DNA from: a virus
Taxonomy: Duplodnaviria; Caudoviricetes
DNA: 64,000 nt
Direction: 5' to 3' (one strand)
IMG/VR virus record: IMGVR_UViG_3300021399_000106
Coordinates: 64,001-128,000 of that record
Shown here: positions 15,881 through 54,163 of the stretch, piece by piece
Numbering within the stretch: position 1 is the stretch's first letter
Layout: each line of letters starts with the position of its first letter
Program-made: the position numbers and the translations under genes
Notes under the pieces: generated by a model
What the model saw: the letters and a program-made list of their open reading frames with translations, nothing else
Database searches by the model: none
What the model was told of the DNA's origin: nothing

Positions 15881-17020
15881 ATGATTTTAAAAAACCAATT
15901 ATTTAAAGATGTATGTGGATCAATTCTTTTTGCAATTGACTCTAGTACACTTGCAACTATTACAGATACTCTTGAATTAGTAACTATAGGAAAAACATTA
16001 TATTTAAATGTAACTAATCAAGAATATTATGTATCTTACAAATTTGAACTAGAACATGAAGAAGTATTTCATGCAACAGTTAATGCAACATTATTCTTAA
16101 AGTTAATAAATAGAATAACAACAGAAAATATTGAATTAACTTTAGAAGATAAGGATATGTTAATTAGAGGTAATGGTACTTATAGAATTCCATTTATTGT
16201 AAATGAATCTACAGGCGAACTTCTTGAATTACCTCAAATCAATATTATTAATAAAACAAAGGAATTTACAATTCCAACAACTGTTTTATCATCTATAGCT
16301 GAATATAATAGTAAGGAAATTTCTTCTGTTTCAATGGGAAAAGAAATATATAATTTATATTATATTGATAGAGAAGGCTGTATAACTCATACAAAATCCT
16401 CAGCATGTGTTAATAGTTTTACATTATCTGAAGATGTTAAGTTCTTATTAAATGATAGAATTGTAAAATTATTTAAATTATTTAAGAAAGAACCAAGTGT
16501 TAAATTCGCTCTTGGATATGATGCTATAAGTGAAACAATAATTCAAACTAAGGTATCATTTGAAGTTGATTATATTAAATTAACTGCAATTATTAGATCT
16601 GATGATACTTTATTAAATCAAGTTCCTGTAACAGCTATAAGAACAAGTGCAAATAAGATTTATCCAAATAAAGTTATATTAAATAAAGCTGAATTTTTAG
16701 CTGCAATTGATAGATTAATGCTATTTAATTCCGCAGAATCTAATATTAAACCTTATAATACATTCAAGTTTGATGTTGAAGGAAATTTAACTATTTATGA
16801 TTCAAAGAATATCAACTATGAAACACTTGCATATCAACCAGGAACAGAATTATCTGGTGAGTATACAATGAGAGTTGACTTAGCAGATTTCAAGAAAATT
16901 CTTGATAGCACAGCAGATTCTTTAATATCATTAAATTGTGGAACTACAAGAAATGGTGTTATTTCAACATTAAATGTAAAAAATATCTTTGCAGAAGTTA
17001 AAAGAGAAACTAATCAATAA
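15881..17020 (+). CDS. dnaN: Beta sliding clamp homologue
   Basis: 379 aa, beta-clamp-like size and pattern (LYLNVTNQE, ATVNATLFLKLI, EFLAAIDR); clamp-loader genes are also in the window. Confidence 0.7.
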   Translation: MILKNQLFKDVCGSILFAIDSSTLATITDTLELVTIGKTLYLNVTNQEYYVSYKFELEHEEVFHATVNATLFLKLINRITTENIELTLEDKDMLIRGNGTYRIPFIVNESTGELLELPQINIINKTKEFTIPTTVLSSIAEYNSKEISSVSMGKEIYNLYYIDREGCITHTKSSACVNSFTLSEDVKFLLNDRIVKLFKLFKKEPSVKFALGYDAISETIIQTKVSFEVDYIKLTAIIRSDDTLLNQVPVTAIRTSANKIYPNKVILNKAEFLAAIDRLMLFNSAESNIKPYNTFKFDVEGNLTIYDSKNINYETLAYQPGTELSGEYTMRVDLADFKKILDSTADSLISLNCGTTRNGVISTLNVKNIFAEVKRETNQ

Positions 17021-26562: not shown

Positions 26563-26720
26563 TGTTTACACTCGATGAAAAACTAATTGTAATAGAAATT
26601 ATTCCAATAGAAGCAGTAAGTTGGGTAGAAATAACATTATTTAAGAATGGTAGTATAAGAATTGAGGATAAAACCATATTTTAAGAGGTATTATAACTAT
26701 ATACCTCTTTTCTTTTATTC

Positions 26721-26729
26721 ACTAAATTA
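26721..26729 (+). promoter_or_regulatory. ACTAAATTA motif, candidate late promoter (also at 4005 and 30233)
   Basis: Exact 9-mer in three intergenic gaps that lack TTGTATA, upstream of phoH, the transferase cluster and the tail cluster. Confidence 0.55.
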
Positions 26730-26772
26730 TTTATAATAATAAATAATATATAAAAAGAAAGGATAATTTAGT

Positions 26773-27207
26773 ATGGATAAAATTATAGGATATACAACAG
26801 GTGTATATGATTTATTTCACATTGGACATTTAAATTTATTAAAAAATGCAAAAGGTATGTGTGATATGTTGGTTGTAGGTGTGACTGTTGATGAGTTGGT
26901 AACTTATAAAGGTAAACATGCTATGATACCATTTGAGGATAGAATTGAAATTGTAAGAAGTATCAAGTACGTTGATGCCGCTATTCCACAATACGATATG
27001 GACAAATTAACAGCGTGTAAAAAACTCGGAGCCTCTATTTTATTTGTTGGTGATGATTGATATGGAACAGATAAATGAAAAGCTTACGAGGAAGAGTTTG
27101 CAAAAGAAGGAATTAAGATAGTCTATTTTCCTTATACAAAAGGTATATCTTCTACAAAAATAAATAATGCGTTAAATAAATTTCAATCAGAAGTGGAGGG
27201 AAAATAA
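26773..27207 (+). CDS. Glycerol-3-phosphate cytidylyltransferase-like (TagD family)
   Basis: GVYDLFHIGH, VGDD(W), PYTKGISST; TGA at 27058 and 27076. Confidence 0.9.
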
Positions 27208-28257
27208 ATGTCAAAAGATAAAAATTACTGTATGTCTTCATACATAGCATTTAGATACATTGAGGATAATAATAAGGATTTTTCGGAAAATAAAAAACAT
27301 CAAAACATAAATCCAATAGATATAGATAAAAGAATAAAATGTTTTACAAGTGATGATATTGGTTTAAATATAGAAAAACAAATTAATATGTTAAAACAAA
27401 AATATAATAAACTTGGTGTTATGTTATCAGGGGGTATGGATAGTGCAATTGTTGCCTCTTATATGTCAGGATGTGATGCCTATACATTTAGATTTTTAGG
27501 AGGAGATTTTCAATCAGAGGAATTAAAAAGAGCCGAATATTTTGCTAATTATTATAAACTTAATCTTCATTATGTTGACATTTGCTGAGAAACAGTTATT
27601 AAGTATCTTGATCCGGTAATGGAATCTAAATGTGCACCCGTTCATTCAATTGAACCACAGATTTTACAAGCCGCCTTACAAGCAAAAGACGATGGTGTTG
27701 ACTGTATTCTTATTGGTGAGAGTAGTGATCTTGTTTTTGGTGGAATGGATGGTTTACTTGCAAAAGATTGAAGTTTTGAAGAATTTGTAAAAAGATATAC
27801 TTTTTTAGATCCATCGTTGGTTTTAAAGGAACCAGTATCTATGAATTACCTATTTGAAAGATATAGATTACCTGATGATAAAATAGATTTTATGAAATTC
27901 CTGGATGACGTATATTCAATAGAAAGTTCAAGTAGTTATTTAAATGCATTTAAGGTAGCAAATCTTGATTACTATGACCCATACGCTCATTTAATTATGG
28001 GTGATAAATTGGATCTAAATAGAGTCAGAAATGGTGAGTCTAAATATTTAATTAGAGAATTAATGGCTAAAAGATATCCGGAAATACCGGTACCAAATAA
28101 GACACCAATGCCTAGACCTGTAGATGAATACTTTAAATATTGAGAAGGTCCAAAAAGAGCCGAATTTAGAGATGATATTGATATGTCTAAATTAACAGGT
28201 AATCAAAAATGACAACTTTATTGTTTAGAAAAATTTTTAGATAATATGGAGAGATAG
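27208..28257 (+). CDS. Asparagine-synthase-like PP-loop ATPase
   Basis: LSGGMDS, GESSDLVFGG, KYLIREL; four TGA and no TGG. Confidence 0.8.
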
Positions 28258-28258
28258 T

Positions 28259-29350
28259 ATGAATCCAATAGATATTGTAATTACTTATTTAAATTCAAAC
28301 GATAAAAAATGACAACAAGATTATAATATGTATATGGATAAGGAAATAAAAAGTGGTATACATAATAAAAATGATAGACAATCATTTGGTATTGAAAGAA
28401 TAAGAGAATGGGATAATCTAAGATACTGATTTAGAGGAATAGAAAAAAATTGTCCTTGAATTAATAAAATATTCTTTGTAGTTCAAAATGAAAGACATAT
28501 TCCTAATTGATTAGATAAAAATAATCCAAAATTAAGAATAGTTTATCATGAGGAGTTCATACCTAAAGAATTATTACCCACATTCAATGCAATTACAATT
28601 GCTTTCTATTTATCAAATATAAAAGATTTATCTGAAAATTTTATAACCTGTGATGATGATATGTTCTTTATAAATGAAACAACATCAGATTTATTCTTTG
28701 ATAATAATGGTAATGCTGTTCTTGATATAAGAAAAGAGCCTTATAAATTGAATTATTGAAATGATTGAGAAAGGATTCTAAATAATAATAAAGAGTTTAT
28801 TCATAATTTTATGAATAAAGATAACGAATGCTGTTTTAAGTATTCACATTTACCTGATCCAATGAATAAAAAAATTACACAGGATTTAATTAATAAATAT
28901 TACGATAAATTTTTTAATTCATTCAAATTATCTAAATTTAGAAAAACTGATAATTATCAAAGATTTCTTCTTGTTGATTTTCCTAAAATTGGTAAAAAAG
29001 AAAACAACGTACAAAGAATGAATGTATCTAAATATGTACATTATACATCAGAAATAGATTTAAGAAAATATAACAGGTATAAAATTGTATGTATAAATGA
29101 TACAGAGGCTATGGATGATTTTACAACATGTAAAAATAATCTTTTAGTTTTCTTACAAAATTTATTACCTAATAAATCGTCATTTGAATTGGATAATTTT
29201 ACCTATGAAGGTAACTATATCATAAAAGTTAAAAATGAAAACAAGAAGGTTGAAACAAACAAACCAAAAAAGCTTTTAAATAAACAAAAGGTTAAATCAA
29301 ATACTGCTTTTACCGGTTTACCTGATGAATGGTGAAAAGAAAATTATTAG
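28259..29350 (+). CDS. Stealth-family sugar-1-phosphate transferase
   Basis: IDIVITY..DKK(W) (CR1); LRY(W)FRGIEKNCP(W)INKIF..PN(W)L..HEEFIP..LPTFN..DDD (CR2); CIND (CR4). Confidence 0.9.
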
Positions 29351-29373
29351 TTAACATGAAAGGATAAAATAAA

Positions 29374-30183
29374 ATGAAAATTTGTATAGGAATTATAAGT
29401 TGACTACCCTCAGAAAATGAGCATAGAATACAACGAATTGAAAGATTTAATAAAACATTAGATGAATTAGATAATGCTTTTGGAGACAGAGTTGGATATC
29501 TAATAGTTTCTCAGAATTGAAGAGATTATAAATTACCTAAAAAAATAAAGGATAAAGCAGAAGTTTTCAACTATGATAAATTAGGTATATTAAAAGCAAG
29601 AAAAACTTTAAGAAAACATTTCTTAGAATCAGATTATGATTATTTAATAATGAGTGATGATGATGTTATGATGAAATATAATGATTCATCTGTTATTGAT
29701 AATTATTTAAAGGCTTTAAATGATAATCCTCAAGGATTTATGTTTTTACAATATGGTTGATCCTTAAATTTATGTGCCATTTCGAGATGAATATATGAAA
29801 GGGAAGATATGGTTGATGTTGATCCAGAAAAAAATGAAGGATATGAGGATACTACATTTCCTAATCTTTTACATTATAAATATCCTGATAAGGAATTTAA
29901 GGTACAAGGTATTGAATTCTTACAACATAAATTAGAAAATAGAAGAAAACTTAAATCAACTTGAGAAAATGTAAATATAAAGCATATATTACTTAAAAAA
30001 AGAAGTCAATATATAATAAATGGATTTAAAAATGGTAATTTTGATGTAAAAAAATTAAAGGATGAAGCTTTAGAAAAAGTGACAGATGAAAGTTGAATGA
30101 CTAGAACACGAAATCAAGTTGTAGTAAAAGATTCTACAGCATTTACAGGTTTACCTGACGAGTGGTGAAAAGAAGACTTTTAA
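29374..30183 (+). CDS. GT-A fold glycosyltransferase (absent from the ORF track)
   Basis: GILKAR, YLIMSDDD, GYED; seven TGA. Confidence 0.75.
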
Positions 30184-30268
30184 TAGAAATAATAAACCTT
30201 TATTAATAATATAAAGGTTTTTATTTTTATCAACTAAATTAATTATAATAATGAATGGAGGTTATTCT

Positions 30269-31189
30269 ATGCCAAATAATATGAATAAATATGGTTTTGG
30301 AAATAATCAGGATACAGATAATAGAGATTGATATCCTACAAAACAAGAACCAATAAAGGCAAAATTATATCCATATAATCATATAGACGATTTAATTAAT
30401 GAAAAACTAGAACAACATATTCAAAGAACTGATAATCCACATCAAGTTACTTTACAACAATTAGGTGTAGATCATTTATTTACTCATAATATGAGAGTTG
30501 AATATGATGAAGATAAACCAATTATTCATTTAATATTATTAGATTTAAATGGTAATCCATTAAGTGATGTAGGTCCTATTGATATTGATGTTTCTGAATA
30601 TAGTGAAGAACAACTTGAAGAATTAAAAAGATATTTAGAAGAAAAAATTAATGTTATTGAAGAGGAAATTAAAGAGATAACTGATAAACTAAGTATTGAA
30701 GAATTAAGTAAAAGAACATATACAGATTTAGATAATATCGAACATACAGTAGTTAGAATTCAACTAGACGAAAAAGAAAGTATTTATAGAGATTATGATG
30801 GTAATGATGTAGTTAAAATTGTTGATAATAATGTTTTATTAAATGGCGAACCATTATCTCCTAACTTAACTGTTAATTCAGATACTATTATTAATAAGGT
30901 ATTGGAAACAAATGCAGAAGAAGTGTATGATAATAAATTAAATGTATTAAATTTAACAATTCCTAGTTCAGCTAAACACGGTTTCTGTTCATATATAAGT
31001 TTTGAACCTGCATCAACTTTTACATTTAATGTTATTAATGAAAGTGAATATAGCTTAAAAATTATTATGAATGGTGCTAAAACAACATTATCTGATATAC
31101 AATTCGTTGATAACTGTCAATATAATTTAATGTTCTTATGTAATGGAGTTAATGTTGAATTATATATTCAGGAAATTCAATTAGTATAA
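30269..31189 (+). CDS. Putative tail/virion protein
   Basis: ATG 30269, TGA 30329; HIQRTDNPHQVTLQQLG motif of the kind seen in tail-fibre proteins. Confidence 0.55.
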
Positions 31190-31201
31190 AGGTGGCAATT
31201 T

Positions 31202-32437
31202 ATGAGATATTTAGATGCCAAAAAGAGATTAATGTTTATGATGGCAACTCTAAAATATATTAGATTGCTATTTAAAAATGAAATAACAATAACAGATGAT
31301 GAGTTAAAATTACTAGTGCAGAAATCAATTCCACTAATATTTAAAGATTATACTATAAGAACAGAAGATATGAATGAAATAGTTAACGGAATTAAAAGTT
31401 GCATTTTACAATTTAATAAAAATATTAGTAAGATTAATGAAAATGTAACTATGGAAACAATTAGAAGAGGTCTTATTCATATTGATGATAAATTATTTGT
31501 AAATAATATTGCAAAATTAATTTTAGCACTATCAAATACATTTATATCAGATGAAAATTTAATTAGTTTAGTAGATTCTAATATGTTAACCACCTCTCAA
31601 ATAAAACCGCTTAAAAACGGAGAATTACCTATAAATATAGAGGATAAATTAATAGTAATTATTAAAAAAGCTATGCCATTTATATTTTATAATGAAAATA
31701 TAAGTATAGAAGATAAAAATATAATATTAGATAATATATCATCTATAATTTTAAAACCAAAAGATGATAATATAGAATCAAAATATGAAATGGTAATGGA
31801 AACTATAATTAGAAATTCATTATATATTAATGGAAAAATTAAGGTTAAAGAAGATTTAGCTAATTTAATTACATCAATTTCAAATTTATTTTATGTTGAT
31901 ACATTTATTACTACTAAAGATTATAATAAACTGTTAGCGTCAATTTCAAATAAATTAAAAATAGATTCAAAGATTACCGTAGATAATGCTTTTGAGTTAG
32001 TTGCATTATATTCGGATTTAGTTTTAGTTAATGATTTAGTATTATCAATTAATGATTTTAAATTACAAACACCACCTTCTAATAAATTATTTATTAAAGA
32101 TGGTAGTAAAATTAGTAATGATGTAGTTTTAACTCTAGGAAATTTTATATCTTTACCTTTTGAAATAAATACTAAATTATTTATAAATAATAAACTATTC
32201 TTAGATACAGTTGAATCTTGTAAAGTTATACTGGAATCAGTTTTCAATACTAAGAATAAAAATATTATAAGAATTGATGAATCTCGAAATTTAATTGATA
32301 AAATATCAAGTTTAGATGTAAATGATTGTTTACAGATACTTAGATACAGATATTCTTTATTAAGAGATTGAGATTCAATTCAAATGGATGATATATTGAA
32401 TTTAAATATGTCACAGTTGATATATGTTTTAAAATAA
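31202..32437 (+). CDS. Hypothetical protein, probably virion-associated
   Basis: Extended through TGA 32369 to TAA 32435; I/N/D/K-rich with a weak internal repeat (METIRRGL / METIIRNSL). Confidence 0.6.
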
Positions 32438-32456
32438 AATTAAGGAGAATTTAAAA

Positions 32457-33059
32457 ATGGGATTAACAATTAACACAGCAAAAAATTTATTAAGACAACT
32501 TGTAGGTTTAACTGGTGACTCTTGATTAGCTTTAAGTAGCACTGAACCTGATCCAAGTGGTAAAGGTGAGTCAGGATACAATATTACTGAACCTCCTGCA
32601 ACAGATCCAGAGACAGGTCATCCTACAAATTATGCAAGAACTATGTTAGACAGCCATTTCAGTGATAGTGATGCTTCATTTTCTGATGGTTTAGTAGATG
32701 GTGTTTATACAGTTAGTATTAAAAATATCGACGAAATTCATTTCCAAGAAGCATTAGCTGATTGAGGAAATTATAGATGATTTGCAATTTTTGAAGGTAG
32801 AACTGGTGGCAATCCAAAATATGTTGGTGAATTATTAAAATTTGTTCAAGATACTACTGTAAATGCAGAAAACTATACAGAAAAAGTTGAAGCAGGTTTA
32901 TATTATTTCGATAATGCTCAGAATGATTATATTAAAATTACTGATGAAGCATTTGTTGAAGGTAAACCTTATTACATAAAGGATAATAGTGGTATTGATA
33001 TCGAAGAAGGAACCGTTCCACTAGTTAGAACAGGTTATTTAAAGATTTCAGTTCAATAA
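32457..33059 (+). CDS. Phage tail-associated protein (absent from the ORF track)
   Basis: LALSSTEP..EP..NYAR..IHFQEALAD(W)G..FAIF..TGGN pattern of small tail proteins; three TGA. Confidence 0.7.
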
Positions 33060-33084
33060 TTTTATTAGTTAGGAGGCAAACAAT

Positions 33085-34122
33085 ATGCCAAGTTCAAAAA
33101 CAACAAATTTAGATTTGAATGTTGGATATGCTGAAACTGATAGAACTCAATCTTGAATTGATGGAATTGATAATAATTTTAGAAATTTAGATAATGATTT
33201 AGGAACCGTTTTTAAGGCAATAGAGAATGCTGGTATAACTTTATCAAGAAATGTAGCTCTGGAAGATGAATGGTCAACCGGAGCTTATTTACTAAATACA
33301 ACATTCTTAAGTAGTTTTAAAAATGCTAGCGCCATTAGATTTGGTACTTATATTTATGTTTTTATAGGTAGCGAAAATGCTGAGGGTGATATTTATAAAT
33401 TCAATTCAGTAAAATATACCTTAACAAAAATAGATGCAAAAGTACCTCTAGGATTCAATAATTTTAAAGTCGAACAATATCAAGGTAGAGTATTTTTAAT
33501 TGGTGGATGTGAAAATCAAACTGCATCAAATCTATTCTATATTTTTGATATTGCAAATGAAGAAATATTAGTACCAGATACTACTTTAAGTATTAGTTTA
33601 ACAAATTGTGGTAGTTGTATTATTAATAATTATATTTATTTATTTGGCGGTAATGATGAAAATGGTAATCAATTAAATTCAATTCTAAAATTTAATGTTG
33701 CGGATTATTCCAATTCATTATTAAGTTTATCACTTTTAGAAAGTGATGATTCTTTATCGGCAACAGCGATTGAAGATAATGTATATTTATTTGGTGGAAA
33801 TAATTCAAATAAAATATATGAATTTGATTCAATTAATGAAACTATTACATTATTAAATGAAACATTACCAACAAATATTAAAAATCATCAATCAATTTTA
33901 TTAGATGATAATATTTATATATTAGGTGGAAAAAATGGTAATCAAATATTAGATACTATTTATAAATTTGATTATAATAATAAAACAATTTCCACTTTAG
34001 ATTTTATATTACCAATAGTTTTATCAAATTTTGCAATAGCTGTAACAGATAATTACGCTTATTTATTTGGTGGAGAAACTACTAATGGTAATAGTACTAG
34101 AATAATTAGATTTGTACCATAA
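33085..34122 (+). CDS. Kelch-repeat beta-propeller protein (absent from the ORF track)
   Basis: About six repeats of the YLFGG/YILGG..IYKFD type; TGA 33154. Confidence 0.85.
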
Positions 34123-34147
34123 TTTAAAACAGAGAGGAGAATATAAT

Positions 34148-34330
34148 ATGGATAAAACAGAAAACACTAATATGAATGTTAATTATAGATCTCCTGAGAC
34201 CTTTTTAAATGAAAGAAATGGTTGAGATAAAAATTTTGAATTTATTGATTATAGTTATCTAACAATATTTGAAGGATTAGAAAAAATAAACAATAAATTC
34301 AGTGAAAGTATAGATTTAGAAGAGGAATAG
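34148..34330 (+). CDS. Small hypothetical protein
   Basis: AGGAG RBS, one TGA, TAG stop. Confidence 0.55.
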
Positions 34331-34347
34331 AAAGGAGACTGATATAA

Positions 34348-37300
34348 ATGGCAATTAATTTAAGTAATATTAGTCAATATTTTCAATATCCATCAAAGGT
34401 AGCAGAGTTAAAAGATAGATTATATAACATCTTAAAAAATAAAGGTATTGAAGTTACTGCTGCTGAAAGCTTAAATTCTTTAATAGAAAAGGTTAGAGAA
34501 GTTGAGCCAGCACTTGAACCTCAAACAATTTATCTAACTCAAAATAATACAAGCTATGATGTAACAGAATATACAGAGGCAATTGTTGATGTTCCTCCTG
34601 TAACAGTTGAAAATGATTTAGATGGTTTAATTGACGGAAGTTTAAAATCATTTACAATGCCTTCTACTATATCAAGTTTAGCAAATGAGAGATTTTTGAA
34701 TTTTAAAGACCTATCCACTGTAATAGCTCCTCGATTAAAAGAAATTCCAGATTCTACTTTTGAAAAATGTATTTCTCTAGAAGAATTAAATTTACCTGAG
34801 GTTAATTTAATTGGTAATTCAGCTTTTAAAGATTGTGTAAAGCTAAGTAGTATAAATGTAAATAATGCTTATTATATTGGTGAAAATGCTTTTGAAAATA
34901 ATATTAACTTGCAAAATATTGATTTAACTAATCTAAGAGAGTTACAATCCGGAACATTTAAAAATTGCTATAACTTATCAAGTATCTCTGCTCCTAATGT
35001 TAGATTAATTGACGGTTCAAGATTATTTGTAAATACTAATTTATCTGAATTAAATTTTCCAAACGTTTACAGTTTAAGATCCTTAACCTTATCAAGTAAT
35101 CGTAATTTAAAGTATATATCATTTCCAAATTTATTATATGTATGAGAATTGAATTTACCTTCTGGAATGAATAATACTGAATTAAATTTCAGTAAATTAT
35201 CCTATTTAACTCATACTTCTTTAGTTGACAGTACTACAATGAGACCTTTTATAAATTCTTGGTCAAATTTAACTTCAATAAATATGAGTTTATTATTAAC
35301 ATTATCTGCCATTTGACAGGCATGATTTGTTAAGAGTTGTCCTAATCTAACAGAAATAAAATTTCCTTTATTAACAAGAATATATTCAGATGGTTTAGCT
35401 TGTGACTTACCTAACTTAAAAACAATTGATTTAGGTTATTTATCATCAATGCCTACATTCTTTGCTAGTAGTTATTATTTTATACATAATTGTGAAAACC
35501 TAGAATCTATTAACTGTAAATATTTATCAAATATTGCTAGTTATTTTATGAGTAGTAATAAGATAAGTAGCTTAGATTTACCTAATACACAATATATTTA
35601 CACTTCAGCTTTTAATAATCTTTCATTATTAAGTAAGATAAATGCCTCAGTAGTTAGTTATATAGGAAATACTGCATTTCTAAATTGTTATAATTTAAGT
35701 GATTATAATTTTGAACATCTAACCTTTATTGGAAATAGTGCATTCAAAAATTGTAGTTCAATGTCAAAAGCTGTAAAAATGGAAACTAATGAGGTTCACA
35801 GTAATGCATTTAATGGATGTTATAATCTAAAAGAAATTTATTTTAATACTGTAAGTACAGGATATTATATAGACAAGGATGCATTCAGTAATTGTGGAAT
35901 ATTAACAGATCCAAATGGTAAAATTTATGTTCCATCATCTAAATACAGTAATTATATTAATACTTATAGTTCATATTTATTTGTAAGTAAAATTACTTCA
36001 ATGTCTGAACAATATGAAAGTGAAACAGCATTTGCTTATGAATTTACTAACTCAGGTCTTACATCTTTTCCTGAAAGTAAAATTAATGTTAAGGCAATAA
36101 ATCAATATGCATTCTCTGGATGTAAGCTAAAAGGAAGTATTACTTTATCTAATCTTGAATATATAGGAAATAAGGCATTTTACAATATGTGAAGTGCCAA
36201 TAACAGTTTAACTCTTAATCTTCCTTCATGTAAAACAATTTCTACTTATGCTTTTTACAATAATACAGCATCAGTTTCATATATTTTACCTGAGGTGGAA
36301 TATATTGGACATTACGCTTTCCAACACAATCCTAACTCAGCTTGTTTTGTATCAATTTCAATGCCAAATGTAAAATATATAGGAGATTATGCCTTTCAAT
36401 CTATTAGATATCTCACCATATCTTCTCCAGAATTAAGTAATCTAGAGTATATTGGAAGTTATGCTTTTGCTTCTATATATTATAAATTCAGTGTTGAAGG
36501 AGGAACTTTAAGTTTACCTAAACTTGAAGTAGTAAACGATTATGCATTCTATGAGATTGGATATCGATATGGGGCAAGTTGACGTTTTAACTTATATGCA
36601 CCTAAACTTAAAAATATACAATACGGAGCATTCCAAAATTGTTACACATTAAGTAGTGTTACTCTATCAGATATAGAAATAATAGGAGGTTATGCTTTTA
36701 ACAGCTGTGCAGCCTTAAGAACAATTGATTCATTATATAATTGTAAAGTAATTAGTAATAATGCATTCTATAATGATTATAACCTATCTTTCTCTATATC
36801 ATCTCCAAATTTACTTAGTGTTGGTCAAAGTGCCTTCTTTGGTACAAAATTAAATTATTTTAGTGCACCAGAATTATTATTCTTGGCCGCAGATGCATTT
36901 AATGGATGTGCCAGTTTATCTACCGTTTATGCTCCAAAAATAAATAAGTTATATACCAATGTATTTCAAGGATGTACTAGTTTATCAAGTTTAACTTTAG
37001 ATTTTTCAGCCATATCGGAAATACAACAAGGTGCGTTATCAGGATGTTGATTACTTTCAGAATTAAATTTACCAAATGTTACTTCTATATCTAACTATGC
37101 ATTTAAAAATTGCTATTCTTTAAGTAATCTAATAATTAATAGTAATTATTCATATATTAAACAAGGAACATTTGCAGGATGTAGTAATTTAGATTTTACA
37201 AATATCAATCTTGAAAATATGACATCAATCGAAAGTGAAGCATTTAGTGGTTGTTCTAAGTTATACTCTATAAAGAATAATTATATTTATAGAGTTGAAT

Positions 37301-40300
37301 CTTCAGTATTCCTTAACTGTACAGGTATTTCAGAAATTAATTTACCAAATGTTGTAGAATTAGATAATAATGCTTTTTATGACTGTACAAATTTAAGTAA
37401 TTTAAATATCAAATATTCAAATATTTATAAAATTCCTCAAGGTGCTTTCTTAAATTGTTATAACTTAAGTAGTTTATATTTTGAAAGGTTAGAATCTATT
37501 GAATCAAGTTGTTTCCAAAATTGTAGTGGCTTAACAGAATTTAATTTAGTTAATGTAACAATAGTTCCAAATAATGCCTTTGACGGATGTCAAAAATTAA
37601 GTAGTATTAATCTGGGAAATGTTACATCTATTGGTGAATCAGCATTCCATAATTGTTATTCTTTAAATAATATTAATTTAAATAATATTGAATATATTGG
37701 AAGTTATGCTTTTGATAGATGTTCTACTCTAAGTATCAGTATTCCTAACTTAAGTGTAGTTAGATCTGCAACTTATCGAGGAACTGATATAAAAGAAATC
37801 ATAAATGATTCAGTGAATGCAATTCATGAAACCGCATTTTATAGTTGTAGTAATTTAAGTGAAATTTCACTTCCTAATCTTTATTCTATATCAATGTCAG
37901 CTTTCCAATATTGTAATAACTTAACTAGTATATATATTCCTAATATTAGAAGTATAGGTGCTGCTGCATTTGCAAGTACAGGAATATATAGTATACCTGA
38001 AGGAATAGATAATAATTTATCCCAAATTCCTCAAAGTTGTTTCCAGAGTTGTAATAATTTATATGAATTAAAATTAAATTCAATTTTATCTATAGGTTCT
38101 GCAGCATTCTACAGTTGTAATTCTTTAAGTGAAATTGAATTAATAAATATTAAAGATACATCTGCATTAGGTAGTAGTGCCTTCTTATATTGTAATAATC
38201 TAGAAAGAATATCGTTACCAAATATTACTAACTTAAGATCTTACTACTGATATGGCGGAAATTATTCATTCTCTGAAAATACAGCTTATTATATATTTGG
38301 TGGTGCTAATAATAACATAAAGGAAATATATGCTCCAAAATGTAGCCAGTTTGCTCACTATATATTCTATGGTAACTTACCTAAAATTGAAAGTATATAC
38401 TTACCAGAATGTACATATATAAATGGATCTCCATTCTCTGGTAAGGCATATTTAAAAAATGTTGATTTAGGAAAAATGTCTTATTTATGAGATTATGCTT
38501 TCTATAACTGTTCTGTATTAAATACTATAAATATAAGTAATATCTTTTCTGTAGGAAACTATACCTTCCAAAGTTGTGGATCTCTAATTTCTATGAACTT
38601 ACCTAGGGTTTCAAGTATTGGTATTAATGCGTTCTTCAATTGTATAAATTTAAGTGAAATTAAGGCTACATATTTAAATTCATTAGGTCAATCGGCTTTA
38701 GCTGGATGTAGTAATCTGAAAAATATTGATGCTCTTACCATCGACAATATTGCTTATTTAGCTTTACTAAATTGCTCTAATTTAGAATCTATAAAAGCAT
38801 GTTATATAGACCAATCAGCCATTTGGAATTGTACACATTTAAGTAATATTTATTTATTAACTGCTAGTAGTAATGCTATTAACATAGCAAATCAACTTAG
38901 TACTACACCAATAGGCAACTCAACCTATTTAGGATACTACGGAAGTATATATGTTCCAAGTTCAAGAGTATCAGTTTATCAAGCTAATTATGCATCTTAC
39001 TCTGAGAGATTTACATCCTTACCATCAGAGATGGAAAATAACTACATACACGCATATCAATATGCCTTAAAAACTATATCTTTATCAGAAATTAAAACTG
39101 AAGCATCTTATATATTACGTTATGCATTTAATAATGCATCATTTGCAGATTTTTCAGAATTAAATCTAAGTAACGTGAAATATATAGGTAGTTATGCATT
39201 CAGAAGTTGTTATAGTTTAACATCAATAAACTTACCAGAATGTGAACGTATAGAATATAGAGCATTTGAAAATTGTACCAATTTAGAGTATATATCATTA
39301 CCAAAAGTTTACAGTATTGGTGATGCGGCATTCTACAATTGTAATAAATTAAAAGTTTTATCATTACCTGAAATAACATATGGCGGCTCAATATTTACTA
39401 ACTTATATTCATTAGAAGAACTATATGTAAGTAAGATAAGAGAGATATCTGTTATTAATTTATCAAAATTAACTATTTTAGATGCTGCTGAAGCTTATTG
39501 GTGATGAGGACCTCAAAGTGCATCAATTAGATATTTAAATTTACCTAAACTATCTTATTTAAAAATAGGAAATTATAATCAAAGTAATGCTAATTTATGA
39601 GGAACTCAATTATCTACTACCATTGAATATTTAAATATTGGTGCCTCATATATAAGTCAACATTCATCAATTTTGGCAAGTAGAAGTTATGGATCAGTTA
39701 TAATGTCAAATATATTAGATATTCCTTCGTATATGTTTAATAGTGCAACTATAAGTTATGCGGAATTTAATAAGGTTACTTCGTTAGGAGTAGCTGCATT
39801 TAGAGGTGCTTCAATAGGTCAACTTAGTTTACCTGAGTTACTTAATGTTAGTGCTAATGGATTTGAGGGTGCTACCATTTTAGGTACATTAGATCTTCCT
39901 AAGGCTAGATATTTAGGAGCTTATGCATTATCTAATTTAAAATGTTCTGATATAAGTATGCCTCAGGTTTCAATGGTATCAAATTATGCATTATATAGAG
40001 TATCTGCATCTACATTAAAATTTAATGCCGTTATGTCTATGGGAACACATACTAATTATCAATTTGCAGGAGCATCAGTTAAATACTTTGTATTCAATAA
40101 CAATATACAAACCTTCTATCAAGGTTATAATTTTGCAGATAATTCAGTTTTAGAAAAGGTTGTATTTAAAGGAAGTATATTAACTTGAGGAAATTGATAT
40201 GGTTCAAATACAGTATTCCCTAATACACCAATAGCAAATTCAACTTATCTAGGTTATTATGGAAGTGTATATGTTCCTCGTAGTTATTTAGATTCTTATA

Positions 40301-40389
40301 GAACAGGGGTTTTCAGTTATTATAGTAATCGTGTAACTGCAATTGAAGATCATGAAAGTGAGTTAAGAGAACTTGGATTAATTGATTAA
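34348..40389 (+). CDS. Giant BspA-type (LRR_5) leucine-rich-repeat protein, ~2013 aa
   Basis: All six track fragments are in one frame, separated only by TGA (13 by my count); dozens of LPxxxxIGxxAFxxCxxL repeats. Confidence 0.9.
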
Positions 40390-40433
40390 TAAAATAATTG
40401 TATAATATTAATATAAATTGAAAGGAAAATATT

Positions 40434-41432
40434 ATGAAATTACAAATTTTAATACCACATTATAATGAACCATTTGAAATAATGAAACCAATGCTAGATA
40501 GCTTAGCAGTTCAACAGAATATTGATTTTGATGAATTAGGTGTAATTATTACAAATGATGGTAATGAAAATGTTTTAGACGAAAAACTATTTGAGTCATA
40601 TCCATTTAAAATTGAATATTATATAAATGAACATAAAGGTGTTTCAGCAACAAGAAATGCTTGTTTAGATAAAGCCAAAGCAGATTATGTAATGTTTGCT
40701 GACTGTGATGATATGTTCTATTCAGTTACTGGATTATGGACAATCTTTAATGAAATTGAAAATGGTGGATTTGAAACATTCATTTCAGTATTTGTTGAAG
40801 AAGGAAGACATCCTGACAGTGGAGAAGTATATTATCTATTTAGAGGAGATCCAAATAATGGTGGAATTGATTCCACATTTGTTCATGGAAAGGTTCATAA
40901 TAGAAAATTCTTATTAAGAAATAAGATTAGATGGAATGATAGTTTAACAATTCATGAAGATTCATTCTTTAATTGTTTATGTCAAAGATTAGCAGATCCA
41001 ACAAAAGCTAAATTCTGTCCTATGCCATTCTATTTATGGAAATGGAATGATAATAGTGTTTGTAGACATGATCCAAAATATATTTTAAAAACATATAATA
41101 ATATGTTAGATAGTAATACAGCATTAGTATCAGAATTCCAAAAGCGTGGTAGATTACAAGATGCACAATTTTATTCAGTAAGTATGATATTTGATGCATA
41201 CTATACAATGAATAAAGATGAATGGATTAACCAGGAAAATAAAGAATATAGAGATAATACAGAAAAGAGATTTAAAAATTATTATTTACAATTTAAAGTA
41301 TTATTTGATACCTGTCCTGAACAAACAAAGAATATGATAATTCAAGGAATTAGAACTAGAATGTTTGGAGAAGGTTTAGGATTAGAAAAGATTACCTTCG
41401 ACCAATGGATTAAACATATCGAATCATTATAA
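40434..41432 (+). CDS. Glycosyltransferase family 2
   Basis: ILIPHYNE, NDG, GVSATRN, FADCDD, HED. Confidence 0.9.
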   Translation: MKLQILIPHYNEPFEIMKPMLDSLAVQQNIDFDELGVIITNDGNENVLDEKLFESYPFKIEYYINEHKGVSATRNACLDKAKADYVMFADCDDMFYSVTGLWTIFNEIENGGFETFISVFVEEGRHPDSGEVYYLFRGDPNNGGIDSTFVHGKVHNRKFLLRNKIRWNDSLTIHEDSFFNCLCQRLADPTKAKFCPMPFYLWKWNDNSVCRHDPKYILKTYNNMLDSNTALVSEFQKRGRLQDAQFYSVSMIFDAYYTMNKDEWINQENKEYRDNTEKRFKNYYLQFKVLFDTCPEQTKNMIIQGIRTRMFGEGLGLEKITFDQWIKHIESL

Positions 41433-52159: not shown

Positions 52160-52519
52160 TTAACCATCATATCCAAATCGACAAATAGTTTTAATTACTT
52201 CACCATTAGGAGTAGTAAATGTATTTTGATCTGTTTCTAGATCTTCGCAAAAACTCTCATAGGTACATAAGCCATAATCACCATATAGTTCCTCAGGATT
52301 GTCCGTATATTCAGGATTTTCCTCTACAATATATTTATTTACTTCATCTAGGTTATAAAATTTACCTTCTTCAAACTTATTATTCTTCCAACTTCAACTA
52401 TATTCACAATAAATGGTTTCTCCGTTTACTCATTTATCAAAATCATCCTTCATTGCAATAACCATTGAGTGTGTTGAGCTTGAGTTAGTTTCAAATGTAT
52501 TTTTTCTAATATTAATCAT
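52160..52519 (-). CDS. FETNSSS-motif protein 4 (absent from the ORF track)
   Basis: MINIRKNTFETNSSSTHSMVI...FGYDG; two TGA. Confidence 0.85.
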
Positions 52520-52522
52520 TAT

Positions 52523-52792
52523 TTAAATTCCTTCCTTATCTTTTTCTAATTTATATAATTTTAAATCCACAATACTATTAGTATTTATAGGAATAATTAT
52601 TACATTTTCTATACCTTTATCGCTTAACATATTTTTAAGAGCTGTGCAATCCTGACAAATCCTTTCCTTAGATGTATTCACAAATTCTACCTTAATTAAA
52701 TATGTATTATTAGAATCTAATTCTGTAAAGCTAATATCTTTTGCATATTTAGCAGTAATTTCTTCTAATTCTTTTTCCGTATATGTAGCCAT
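52523..52792 (-). CDS. Hypothetical protein
   Basis: AAGGAG RBS. Confidence 0.6.
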   Translation of the reverse strand: MATYTEKELEEITAKYAKDISFTELDSNNTYLIKVEFVNTSKERICQDCTALKNMLSDKGIENVIIIPINTNSIVDLKLYKLEKDKEGI

Positions 52793-52804
52793 AATAATAT
52801 CTCC

Positions 52805-53179
52805 TTATCCAAAATAGTAATCTAACGATGCTTCTTTCTTTTCCGCATTATATTCATAACTATCTAATTCATCTATTGAATAAAATGTAATTGGAAAGAA
52901 ACCTAATCTATGATGTCTTGTAACTTCCTTATATCTTTTTAATTCTTCCTTACTCATTTCTTGCCAATTTTCAGGAAATTCAACATTATCAATTCTATTC
53001 TTAATATAATCTTTGATATCTAGCCAAGTACAAAATTCAGGATAGCCATTAGATTCATGCAATACATTATAAAATAATTTTCCATTTGCAAAATCTATCC
53101 AAGTTTTAGCATCGCAAACAACTAAAGAATGTGAACTTGAACTATTAGTTTCAAATGTTGATTTTCTAACTTTAATCAT
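52805..53179 (-). CDS. FETNSSS-motif protein 3
   Basis: MIKVRKSTFETNSSSSHSLVV...DYYFG. Confidence 0.85.
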   Translation of the reverse strand: MIKVRKSTFETNSSSSHSLVVCDAKTWIDFANGKLFYNVLHESNGYPEFCTWLDIKDYIKNRIDNVEFPENWQEMSKEELKRYKEVTRHHRLGFFPITFYSIDELDSYEYNAEKKEASLDYYFG

Positions 53180-53525
53180 AAAATACTACTTCCTTATCTA
53201 CATCAATTATTTTATATAAAGCTTTTAATTCAGGATTTATTTCATCACATAATACATAATTAAAACGATTTCTTTCATCTTCACCTTTAAATTCAATAAG
53301 ATACTTATTACTTTCAGTTGAAAAATCTGATAGCTTTGTTGTTTTAAATACTGAAGTTTTACAGATTAATGACTTACGTGAATCGCTATATAAAAATTGA
53401 TATATAGCCTTTATATCATCAATATTAATGGATTCTATATGAAAGTTTAAACAAGGATTAGGTCCACCATAGTCATTAGTATATTTTAAAGCATTTATAA
53501 ACACATTTTCATCATTCTTATTCAT
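53172..53525 (-). CDS. Hypothetical protein
   Basis: Translationally coupled ORF. Confidence 0.6.
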   Translation of the reverse strand: MNKNDENVFINALKYTNDYGGPNPCLNFHIESINIDDIKAIYQFLYSDSRKSLICKTSVFKTTKLSDFSTESNKYLIEFKGEDERNRFNYVLCDEINPELKALYKIIDVDKEVVFYD

Positions 53526-54163
53526 TATTCCTCAAAATCCTTTTCTGTAATATTATATTTTGAACATGTACAAGTACTGTCAATATATTCTTTTACTCCA
53601 GTATTTAATCCTGGCTTTAAGGTTGGGTTAAATGCGTCATAATAATTTGAATTGTCATTATCAATTACTATCATGCATCCTTTATTAAAAATTATATTAA
53701 TTAAATCTTCATCATCTAATAAATCTTGACTTTGATGGTCAATACTTCCAAATGGGTCACCATATTCATCAATATTTAACTCAAACTTAACCTCTTTAAC
53801 ATCTGGACATTTTTCTTTGATTTTTTCCAATAAATCTTCTAACTCTTCATTTACAACACCATCAGCAATCATTTGTTCAGCTTCACTATGAGTGGTATCA
53901 TTCTCTTCTCCTCAATTCAAATGAATACATAATCTAGTTGCAACATAATCTAACTTATCATTAGATGAAATCAGTAGGTCATCAGTACCAAAACCAGTTA
54001 AAGATTCAGGACCTGACCAACCATAATCTCTAAAATGGATAGTTAAAACTCCATTATCGGTTGCTAGTTCATACTCAATTCTATTTGGATTTTTCTGTGA
54101 ATAAACTAATGAGTGAGATGAACTAGAATTTGTTTCAAATACATTTTTTCTTATTTTTATCAT
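53525..54163 (-). CDS. FETNSSS-motif protein 2
   Basis: MIKIRKNVFETNSSSSHSLVY; joined across TGA 53912; YGW, KLDY, IDHQS, IDNDN. Confidence 0.85.

Follow-up and report, generated by a model that had tools for sequence, protein, structure and literature searches.

Here, we describe a short C-terminal peptide that two adjacent, unrelated transferases of an uncultured rumen phage have in common and propose, with moderate confidence, that it is a portable docking motif recruiting glycan transferases to one common, lineage-specific partner. The phage is represented by a 166.5-kb IMG/VR virus record (labelled G000; G+C content 27%), and the window analysed here, a stretch of 64,000 nucleotides (nt), comprises bases 64001-128000 of that record. 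The peptide, hereafter called the tag, is under purifying selection, follows linkers that are predicted to be disordered, is portable between enzyme families, is specific to a genome or lineage, and is restricted to transferases in the genomes examined. Its binding to a protein, and the choice of that protein, are putative.

The first of the two proteins, a Stealth-type enzyme of 363 amino acids (aa), ends in ...SN-TAFTGLPDEWWKE-NY, and its 269-aa GT-A-type neighbour ends in ...DS-TAFTGLPDEWWKE-DF. Both copies of this identical 13-residue peptide were located as an earlier reading of the letters and their translations (hereafter the sequence-only reading) had described them, and the details of that description are correct: the two DNA copies differ solely at synonymous third positions, with all five named differences confirmed, and the W-W pair is spelled TGG-TGA in both. 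The longest string shared by any other pair of C-terminal 20-mers among 241 open reading frames (ORFs) is five residues, compared with 13 for the tag pair. Over their 39 nt, the copies show five differences at 8.0 synonymous sites (proportion of differences, pS, 0.62; corrected distance, dS, about 1.3) and none at 31.0 non-synonymous sites, and the probability that five random changes leave the peptide untouched is 2e-4. The sequence-only reading had conceded that a recent duplication in the flanking DNA would speak against it. None is seen, the 60 nt on each side of the copies being 37% identical, which is background for A+T-rich DNA. Because the differences are silent only and the flanks are at background, the peptide, and not the DNA, is conserved; it is old and under purifying selection, and the same count and the unrelated flanks rule out a chance match or a recent duplication.

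The length of 13 residues holds for the identical core, but the shared module is longer and includes a hydrophobic-Lys element upstream (VVVKDS and QKVKSN, respectively, in the GT-A and Stealth proteins) that co-varies with the tag. With this short element coming first, the module spans about 22 residues, and the consensus of the tag is F-T-G-L-[PST]-[DE]-E-[WY]-W-K-[ED]-x-[FYL]. All 21 complete tags agree in F-T-G-L, in the E of motif position 7 and in W-K, whereas identity of the catalytic cores drops to 38-42% and the linkers before the tags cannot be aligned; position-specific constraint on the tag exceeds that on the adjoining linker. The tag is kept across phages whose catalytic domains are just 33-42% identical.

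Judged by its profile matches, the 363-aa protein is a member of the Stealth family (Pfam Stealth_CR2, E = 3.3e-34, 117.7 bits with a cut-off of 39.4; CR4, E = 1.8e-6, 28.2 bits with a cut-off of 27.4) with a predicted sugar-1-phosphate transfer activity, and 2306 homologues of it were found. No Pfam model matches the 269-aa protein. Its AlphaFold model resembles WrtF, SpsA and TarP (Foldseek probability 1.00, E = 1e-5 to 2e-6), the last of which is a phage-encoded wall-teichoic-acid enzyme, and the residues D95-D96-D97 (DDD motif) are invariant in 98 homologues; as modelled, the protein is a GT-A-fold glycosyltransferase with an Asp-x-Asp-type motif. Model confidence (predicted local distance difference test, pLDDT) averages 87.9 for the Stealth protein and is <50 in residues 321-363, and it is 91.5 for the GT-A enzyme and about 56-64 in residues 241-269. 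As both folds end well before the tag, a flexible linker separates this terminal peptide from the catalytic domain. In the Stealth protein, the linker has a net charge of +8 over the 30 residues preceding the tag, and linkers preceding tails are generally basic (mean net charge +2.8 vs -1.2 for other ORF ends; Mann-Whitney p = 4e-8). A disordered location together with position-specific conservation under purifying selection, as found here, characterises terminal docking motifs (short linear motifs). A sortase-type sorting signal (LPXTG and relatives) was not found at the end of the protein, which stops two residues past the tag and has no hydrophobic segment there.

TGA is read as Trp in this phage, i.e., genetic code 4 applies. 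This is justified because code 4 lengthens the longest ORF of the window from 749 to 2013 aa and because TGA falls at Trp residues of the GT-A family, among which W49 and W197 are invariant and W10 is nearly invariant in a 28-sequence alignment.

The sequence-only reading had also named absence of the tag from homologues as a point that would count against it, and had suggested a scan of the phage's own code-4 proteome and of related phages. The scan yielded two copies in the phage's own genome and more on other enzymes in relatives; the tag is thus present in homologues and in further enzyme families. A third copy was not detected in the 166.5-kb genome, neither with a DNA pattern nor with relaxed peptide patterns on all ORF ends. 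The same motif ends six GT-A homologues from metagenomes. It also ends the Stealth gene of G005, a 100.8-kb IMG/VR phage (...YEFTGLPEEYWKDNF); this Stealth protein is 33% identical to that of the present phage and ends FTGLPEEYWKDNF, while core genes of the two phages are 80-95% identical. A 619-aa GT2_4-Stealth fusion ends in ...STAFTGLPEEWWKESF, and a TagF-like glycerophosphotransferase fragment, the one new match of a four-sequence tag profile against 1.84 billion representatives, ends in ...TPFTGLPDEWWKEDLL. A search of a 5.8-billion protein set with a 40-residue tail returned the query alone, with just four candidates collected, and the tag pattern had no match among cellular genomes (185,579 species genomes). 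Tag carriers therefore include Stealth proteins, the deeply separated GT-A subfamilies 1 and 2, the GT2_4-Stealth fusion and the TagF-like enzyme. Among them the tag occurs in four sub-variants (PDEWWKE, PEEYWKDNF, [ST]EEWWKE and PEEWWKESF), each of which has its own upstream element and is spread over two or three types of enzyme instead of being tied to one.

Most GT-A homologues end in other conserved tails, namely ...[YF]LYF (48 of 95 GT-A homologue rows), LPxL[DN][DE][WCY]L-type, ...Y.G[LIF] and a W.GW element, and further shared endings are present on like enzymes elsewhere (...YLYF, ...SYIGF, LPSLNEWL). The motifs differ between lineages (FTGLPxEWWK, ...YLYF, ...SY.G..YIGF, LPxL[DN]EWL), and in the genomes read each tagged enzyme bears the motif of its own genome. 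In IMG/VR loci, each phage has two to four neighbouring transferases of unrelated families that end in YLYF; the carriers are TagF-like, Stealth, GT2-Stealth, GT8 and GT-A enzymes, pyruvyltransferases fused to FrhB-like or GT92-like domains, and two proteins without Pfam match. Two loci each encode a pair of neighbouring transferases that share a tail of a third class, a Stealth and a GT-A enzyme in L010 (...NFWSY/...QYIGL) and a pyruvyltransferase-GT92 fusion and a GT-A enzyme in L019 (...YFRGW/...SYIGF). In four whole or partial genomes of 82-223 kb (G000, G001, G002 and G004), tails occur on glycan transferases only, and no polymerase, ligase or other replication protein bears one. Cytidylyltransferases lack a tail in every locus examined, as does the Asn-synthase-like enzyme of the present phage. 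The pattern ADGxxNx[YF]LYF-stop had two matches in the 185,579 species genomes (Enterococcus and a metagenome-assembled genome of Desulfobacterales), neither of which ends a listed ORF.

A tree of the GT-A enzymes built from catalytic cores, with the last 70 residues removed, places at least two origins of the FTGLP tag and at least four of YLYF across strongly supported branches, with 13 changes of tail class over the 95 rows. Given these several independent origins, the sequences indicate that tail class follows the phage and not the ancestry of the enzyme. In other phages, Stealth and GT-A domains 63% and 49% identical to the present enzymes are fused into one protein, which suggests that both enzymes act side by side. 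These fusions (P0116-P0119, P0128, P0154, P0168, P0190, P0194, P0225; 577-590 aa) end in a Trp-rich W.GW...KKY and not in a short tail.

Two further observations concern the tailed families. In L009, two YLYF-ended proteins of 233 and 268 aa (L009:2540-3241 and L009:4852-5658) lie between tagged transferases and match no Pfam or PHROG family; from their position and endings, they are probable unrecognised glycan enzymes. Short GT-A members (about 212-229 aa) without linker or tail stand solitary in head-morphogenesis modules of other phages (L024, L029, L031-L033, L035, L037 and L040), where they come after a conserved gene of ~150 aa and beside gene families that carry the annotations head protease and major head protein in L003. 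This gene order hints that the ancestral target of the GT-A family may have been a head component.

The sequence-only reading had inferred a docking or targeting peptide. Conservation of the peptide and not the DNA, the disordered linkers, and the presence of the tag in homologues and further enzyme families agree with it, while the part of the proposal that likened the tag to clamp-binding peptides is disfavoured. We envisage that the tag docks transferases onto one partner. The enzymes concerned (Stealth, GT-A, TagF-like and GT2-Stealth fusion enzymes) would build or extend a sugar-phosphate polymer specified by the phage and, despite their unrelated folds, would meet at a single acceptor. 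With a length of about 12-30 residues, the flexible, mostly basic linker would leave the catalytic domain free to swing round its anchor and reach this acceptor. Enzymes that make soluble precursors, such as the cytidylyltransferase and the Asn-synthase-like enzyme, would need no tag, and a newly acquired enzyme could become functional in the pathway once it bears the tag of the lineage. It is tempting to extend this into a plug-in system, in which the C-terminal address connects acquired transferases to a reader on a virion part encoded next door, a tethered assembly line covers the particle or its fibres with a sugar-phosphate polymer resembling teichoic acid, and address-reader pairs are swapped between lineages in the manner of cohesins and dockerins; in this complete form the proposal is tentative, a possibility that we think will probably not hold in every part.

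Several findings weigh against the docking motif as we propose it. Gene conversion between copies could add to the concerted evolution of the tag, the comparison of both DNA copies covering this genome only, and basic linkers with aromatic tips would suit a membrane or polyanion tether as well. Six untagged transferases stand beside two tagged ones in L020, and untagged transferases are also encoded by G005 (GT92-like) and G000 (GT2). G005, which is 57% complete, has one tagged enzyme only. Because of these untagged transferases and the single tagged enzyme in G005, gathering of several enzymes is not the whole story. Lastly, apart from G000, the assignment of metagenomic proteins to genomes rests on the tags themselves.

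TagF-like, Stealth and pyruvyltransferase enzymes normally act on membrane-bound acceptors, and the main rival explanation is a tether without protein receptor, in which the basic linker and aromatic tip hold the transferases at the anionic inner membrane face, the site of lipid-linked acceptors, or at the poly-phosphate polymer of their own making. The charge of the linkers and the aromatic clusters that end all tail classes fit such a tether, as does the interfacial-scale sum of CFLYF (-4.0 kcal/mol), and Bcs3 of Haemophilus influenzae, whose C-terminus forms amphipathic helices, is tethered to its own polymer by an SH3b domain (PMC10299916). The FTGLPDEWWKE tag, however, is net acidic with an unfavourable sum on the same scale (+1.3 to +1.9 kcal/mol), closely related phages have quite different tails, and the 21 complete tags show little or no variation at the Gly, Thr, Pro/Ser and Glu positions, which a compositional anchor would not need. 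We therefore regard the tether as unlikely, though worth keeping in mind.

Restriction to glycan transferases and the aromatic-rich character of all classes would also be compatible with a tail that stacks on a sugar chain, or with a sequon whose Thr or Tyr primes synthesis by becoming glycosylated itself, the Thr of the tag having a Pro at +3. Short disordered peptides are poor lectins, though; no structural protein bears the tag, which speaks against a general sequon; Ser or Thr may replace the Pro; and Tyr and Thr are not common to all classes, so that we give this explanation little credence. Even less probable is a C-terminal degron, or a protease- or PDZ-type signal, that limits enzyme lifetime. 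All classes do end in [DE/hydrophobic]-x-aromatic-COOH, and such ends are similar to PDZ class II/III ligands and to DegS-activating YxF termini. Yet the constraint extends over about 22 residues, far beyond the needs of a degron tip, there is no reason for transferases alone to need a degron, and a phage-encoded PDZ reader (PF13180, PF17820) had no match over cut-off in five phage genomes, with one match below threshold, whereas the controls were recovered in 14 of 14 cases.

Swapping of tails between enzyme families could be the footprint of a mobile cassette, and gene conversion between neighbours could explain some of the identity within a genome, without any function of the tag itself. 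We consider this very improbable in view of the diverged silent sites with zero amino-acid changes and unrelated flanks, the persistence of the tag on strongly diverged catalytic domains, and three further tail classes that obey the same rules. Least credible of all is a peptide that binds the sliding clamp or another part of the replisome, so that the enzymes would ride the clamp and glycosylate DNA: the phage does encode a clamp-like processivity factor (phrog_947) and C-terminal aromatic tails recall the gp45-binding tails of T4 and RB69, but no replisome protein is tailed in the four genomes searched, the tag fits neither QL[SD]LF nor Qxx[LIM]xx[FY][FY], surface-polymer synthesis is the typical role of the TagF-like polymerases, pyruvyltransferases and GT8 enzymes among the carriers, and the tagged clusters sit in modules for the head or the fibres.

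If the tag is a docking motif, its partner might be sought among the neighbouring genes. In the YLYF and class-e lineage, the enzymes are encoded between the genes for the major head protein (HK97-type in the YLYF lineage) and the head-tail adaptor; a head-tail adaptor gene follows 12 of 12 tail-bearing loci and 0 of 27 others, a contrast that is confounded with phage lineage. In the present phage and in G005, the tagged gene is directly followed by a fibre-type gene and then by Kelch-propeller genes. The N-terminal module of the fibre-type protein is 52% identical to the product of a 126-aa gene that comes after the tagged Stealth gene of G005. It is the best-conserved piece of an otherwise hypervariable island that lies between an RNA ligase / 140-aa gene and clamp-loader-type genes (26563-41432 of the window, compared with L072 of G005), and is a candidate partner of the tag. 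Glycan enzymes, fibre, Kelch and leucine-rich-repeat (LRR) genes of the island differ between the two phages; from this comparison, exchange seems to involve glycan enzymes and receptor-binding genes jointly. The G005 island also holds an adenylosuccinate-synthetase-like gene (L072:12472-13653, minus strand, equal to G005 52469-53653; PF00709, E = 6e-23), and phage homologues of this enzyme (PurZ) are known for making 2-aminoadenine DNA.

In the present phage and in G005, Kelch genes come one to three genes after the tagged ones, and they were found in two of two tag-bearing genomes vs none of three with other tails, a set of five genomes that is confounded by phylogeny. With four residues that match a known Kelch ligand (see below) and these five phylogenetically confounded genomes, a Kelch propeller as the reader of the tag is a lead only. 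BspA-type LRR genes occur in four of the five genomes whatever the tail class and are absent from the partial G005, and are uninformative about an LRR protein as reader. We would rank an adjoining virion part (the fibre N-terminal module or a Kelch protein here, head proteins in the YLYF lineage) above a hub among the enzymes themselves, and the latter above a host component.

The two tagged genes close a same-strand run of four glycan genes under code 4, which encode a cytidylyltransferase-like, an Asn-synthase-like, the Stealth and the GT-A protein (26773-30183; Table 1). The hairpin and U-run directly behind it are a probable terminator that closes a four-gene glycan operon; a consensus terminator scanner missed the hairpin because it has just two G-C pairs. 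Farther downstream, the 2013-aa protein consists almost entirely of BspA-type leucine-rich repeats and is probably an adhesin-like fibre.

Table 1 Features of the glycan gene run and its surroundings, in positions of the window (MFE, minimum free energy)
Feature	Position	Strand	Remarks
Clamp-like DNA polymerase processivity factor	15881-17020		phrog_947, E = 1.7e-11; upstream, surrounded by genes for helicase and anaerobic ribonucleotide reductase
Cytidylyltransferase-like gene (TagD-type nucleotide activation), operon gene 1	26773..27207	+	Pfam PF01467, E = 7.5e-21; no C-terminal tag
Asparagine-synthase-like gene (synthetase domain)	27208..28257	+	Pfam PF00733, E = 2.7e-17, residues 67-196; untagged
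Stealth-family hexose-1-phosphate-transferase-like gene, 363 aa	28259..29350	+	Folded part residues 1-320
Lys-rich disordered linker of the Stealth protein	29219..29302	+	pLDDT 34-45
Tag copy 1 (Stealth)	29303..29341	+	TAFTGLPDEWWKE, then N-Y-stop
GT-A-fold glycosyltransferase, 269 aa	29374..30183	+	Phage family with invariant DDD motif, without Pfam model
Upstream element of the tag module (GT-A gene)	30112..30135	+	NQVVVKDS; co-varies with the tag in other phages
Tag copy 2 (GT-A enzyme)	30136..30174	+	TAFTGLPDEWWKE, then D-F-stop
A+U-rich hairpin followed by U-run, directly 3' of the GT-A gene	30184..30236	+	MFE -14 kcal/mol, z -5.3, 0/200 shuffles as stable
Fibre-type protein	30251..31189	+	Weak PHROG tail-fibre / virion-protein matches
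Kelch beta-propeller protein	33085..34122	+	Pfam PF24681, E = 9e-30; other Kelch families too
BspA-type leucine-rich-repeat protein, 2013 aa, fibre module	34348..40389	+	Pfam LRR_5, E = 3e-201, 18 stretches
GT2 glycosyltransferase, far end of the island	40398..41432	+	Pfam PF00535, E = 2.2e-12; untagged; without a match in the genome-wide scan for tails

Should the tag prove to be a docking address, it would show how a phage can organise multi-enzyme glycan synthesis without membranes or fusions, and how enzymes brought in by recombination are wired into the pathway at once. The tails offer a sequence handle on phage glycan machinery that has no family annotation, as exemplified by the two L009 proteins and the whole Pfam-less GT-A family, and the tag could serve as a bait for its partner and hence for the acceptor, be it the virion, a wall polymer or another. 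A tag-reader pair could, moreover, become a small orthogonal tethering module. At least four different peptides follow the same rule, in many large uncultured phages with TGA as a Trp codon, which makes it a widespread feature.

A description of shared tails on phage glycan enzymes was not found in the literature searched. The principle of one small address on unrelated enzymes is known from encapsulin cargo, clamp tails, dockerins and a Golgi motif, and the tag falls under none of their sequence definitions. The sequence-only reading had pointed to encapsulin cargo-loading peptides, and the analogy stands for the general form, a C-terminal tag after a linker, but not for the sequence. Like the tag, these peptides are short, C-terminal, attached by a flexible linker to unrelated neighbouring enzymes and portable between families, and in the YLYF lineage the likeness extends to the enzyme genes adjoining an HK97-type major head gene. 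The present tag differs in that it lacks the Gly-Ser-Leu-type core of cargo peptides and in that its cluster lies beside fibre genes and not beside a capsid gene. The window neighbours of the tagged genes are of fibre-type, Kelch and LRR kind, and the major head protein family phrog_138 was unmatched in G000 in a search that was silent in all control genomes too and thus is no evidence of absence. Transferases inside a shell would, in addition, be without their nucleotide-sugar donor substrates. Clamp-binding tails (bacterial QL[SD]LF; gp43, gp33 and gp55 of T4/RB69 on gp45) are likewise terminal, have an aromatic end and occur on unrelated proteins of one genome, but the present tag misses their consensus and its carriers are transferases of surface-polymer type, with no replication protein among them.

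Cohesins and dockerins assemble cellulosomes, and GOLPH3/Vps74 reads a short cytoplasmic motif common to many Golgi glycosyltransferases. In both systems, as proposed here, one reader serves many unrelated carbohydrate enzymes that carry the same small address, and the pairs differ by lineage. Dockerins, however, are extracellular Ca-binding domains of about 70 residues, compared with a phage peptide of 13-22 residues, and the Golgi motif is N-terminal and serves membrane trafficking, unlike the C-terminal phage tag. Mycobacteriophage virions, the subject of work by Freeman and colleagues in 2023, are reportedly glycosylated by phage-encoded glycosyltransferases that would act on virion proteins, and the substrates reportedly carry special C-terminal segments. 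The glycan genes of the present phages lie embedded within modules for the head or the fibres, and here the enzymes, and not the substrates, bear the tag.

The Kelch domain of KLHL20 binds the DAPK1 peptide LGLPDLVAKYN as a helical turn in the central pocket of a six-bladed propeller (PMC6720452). Ligand and tag have a G-L-P-D core followed by hydrophobics and Lys in common (G-L-P-D-E-W-W vs G-L-P-D-L-V-A). The match is confined to four residues, though, and the Kelch proteins of the phages, which have 27% identity between them and no BTB or ubiquitin context, are propellers of a generic kind and probably fibre or receptor-binding parts. Bcs3 of H. influenzae combines the TagF-like CroT with a phosphatase, CriT, an SH3b tether and C-terminal helices (PMC10299916). 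As we propose for the phage enzymes, it unites TagF-like and sugar-phosphate transferase activities and tethers them at one acceptor, and the phage family also includes covalent Stealth-GT-A and GT2-Stealth fusions. In Bcs3, fusion and a folded domain that binds the polymer bring this about, whereas the tagged phage enzymes are separate proteins that carry an identical disordered peptide.

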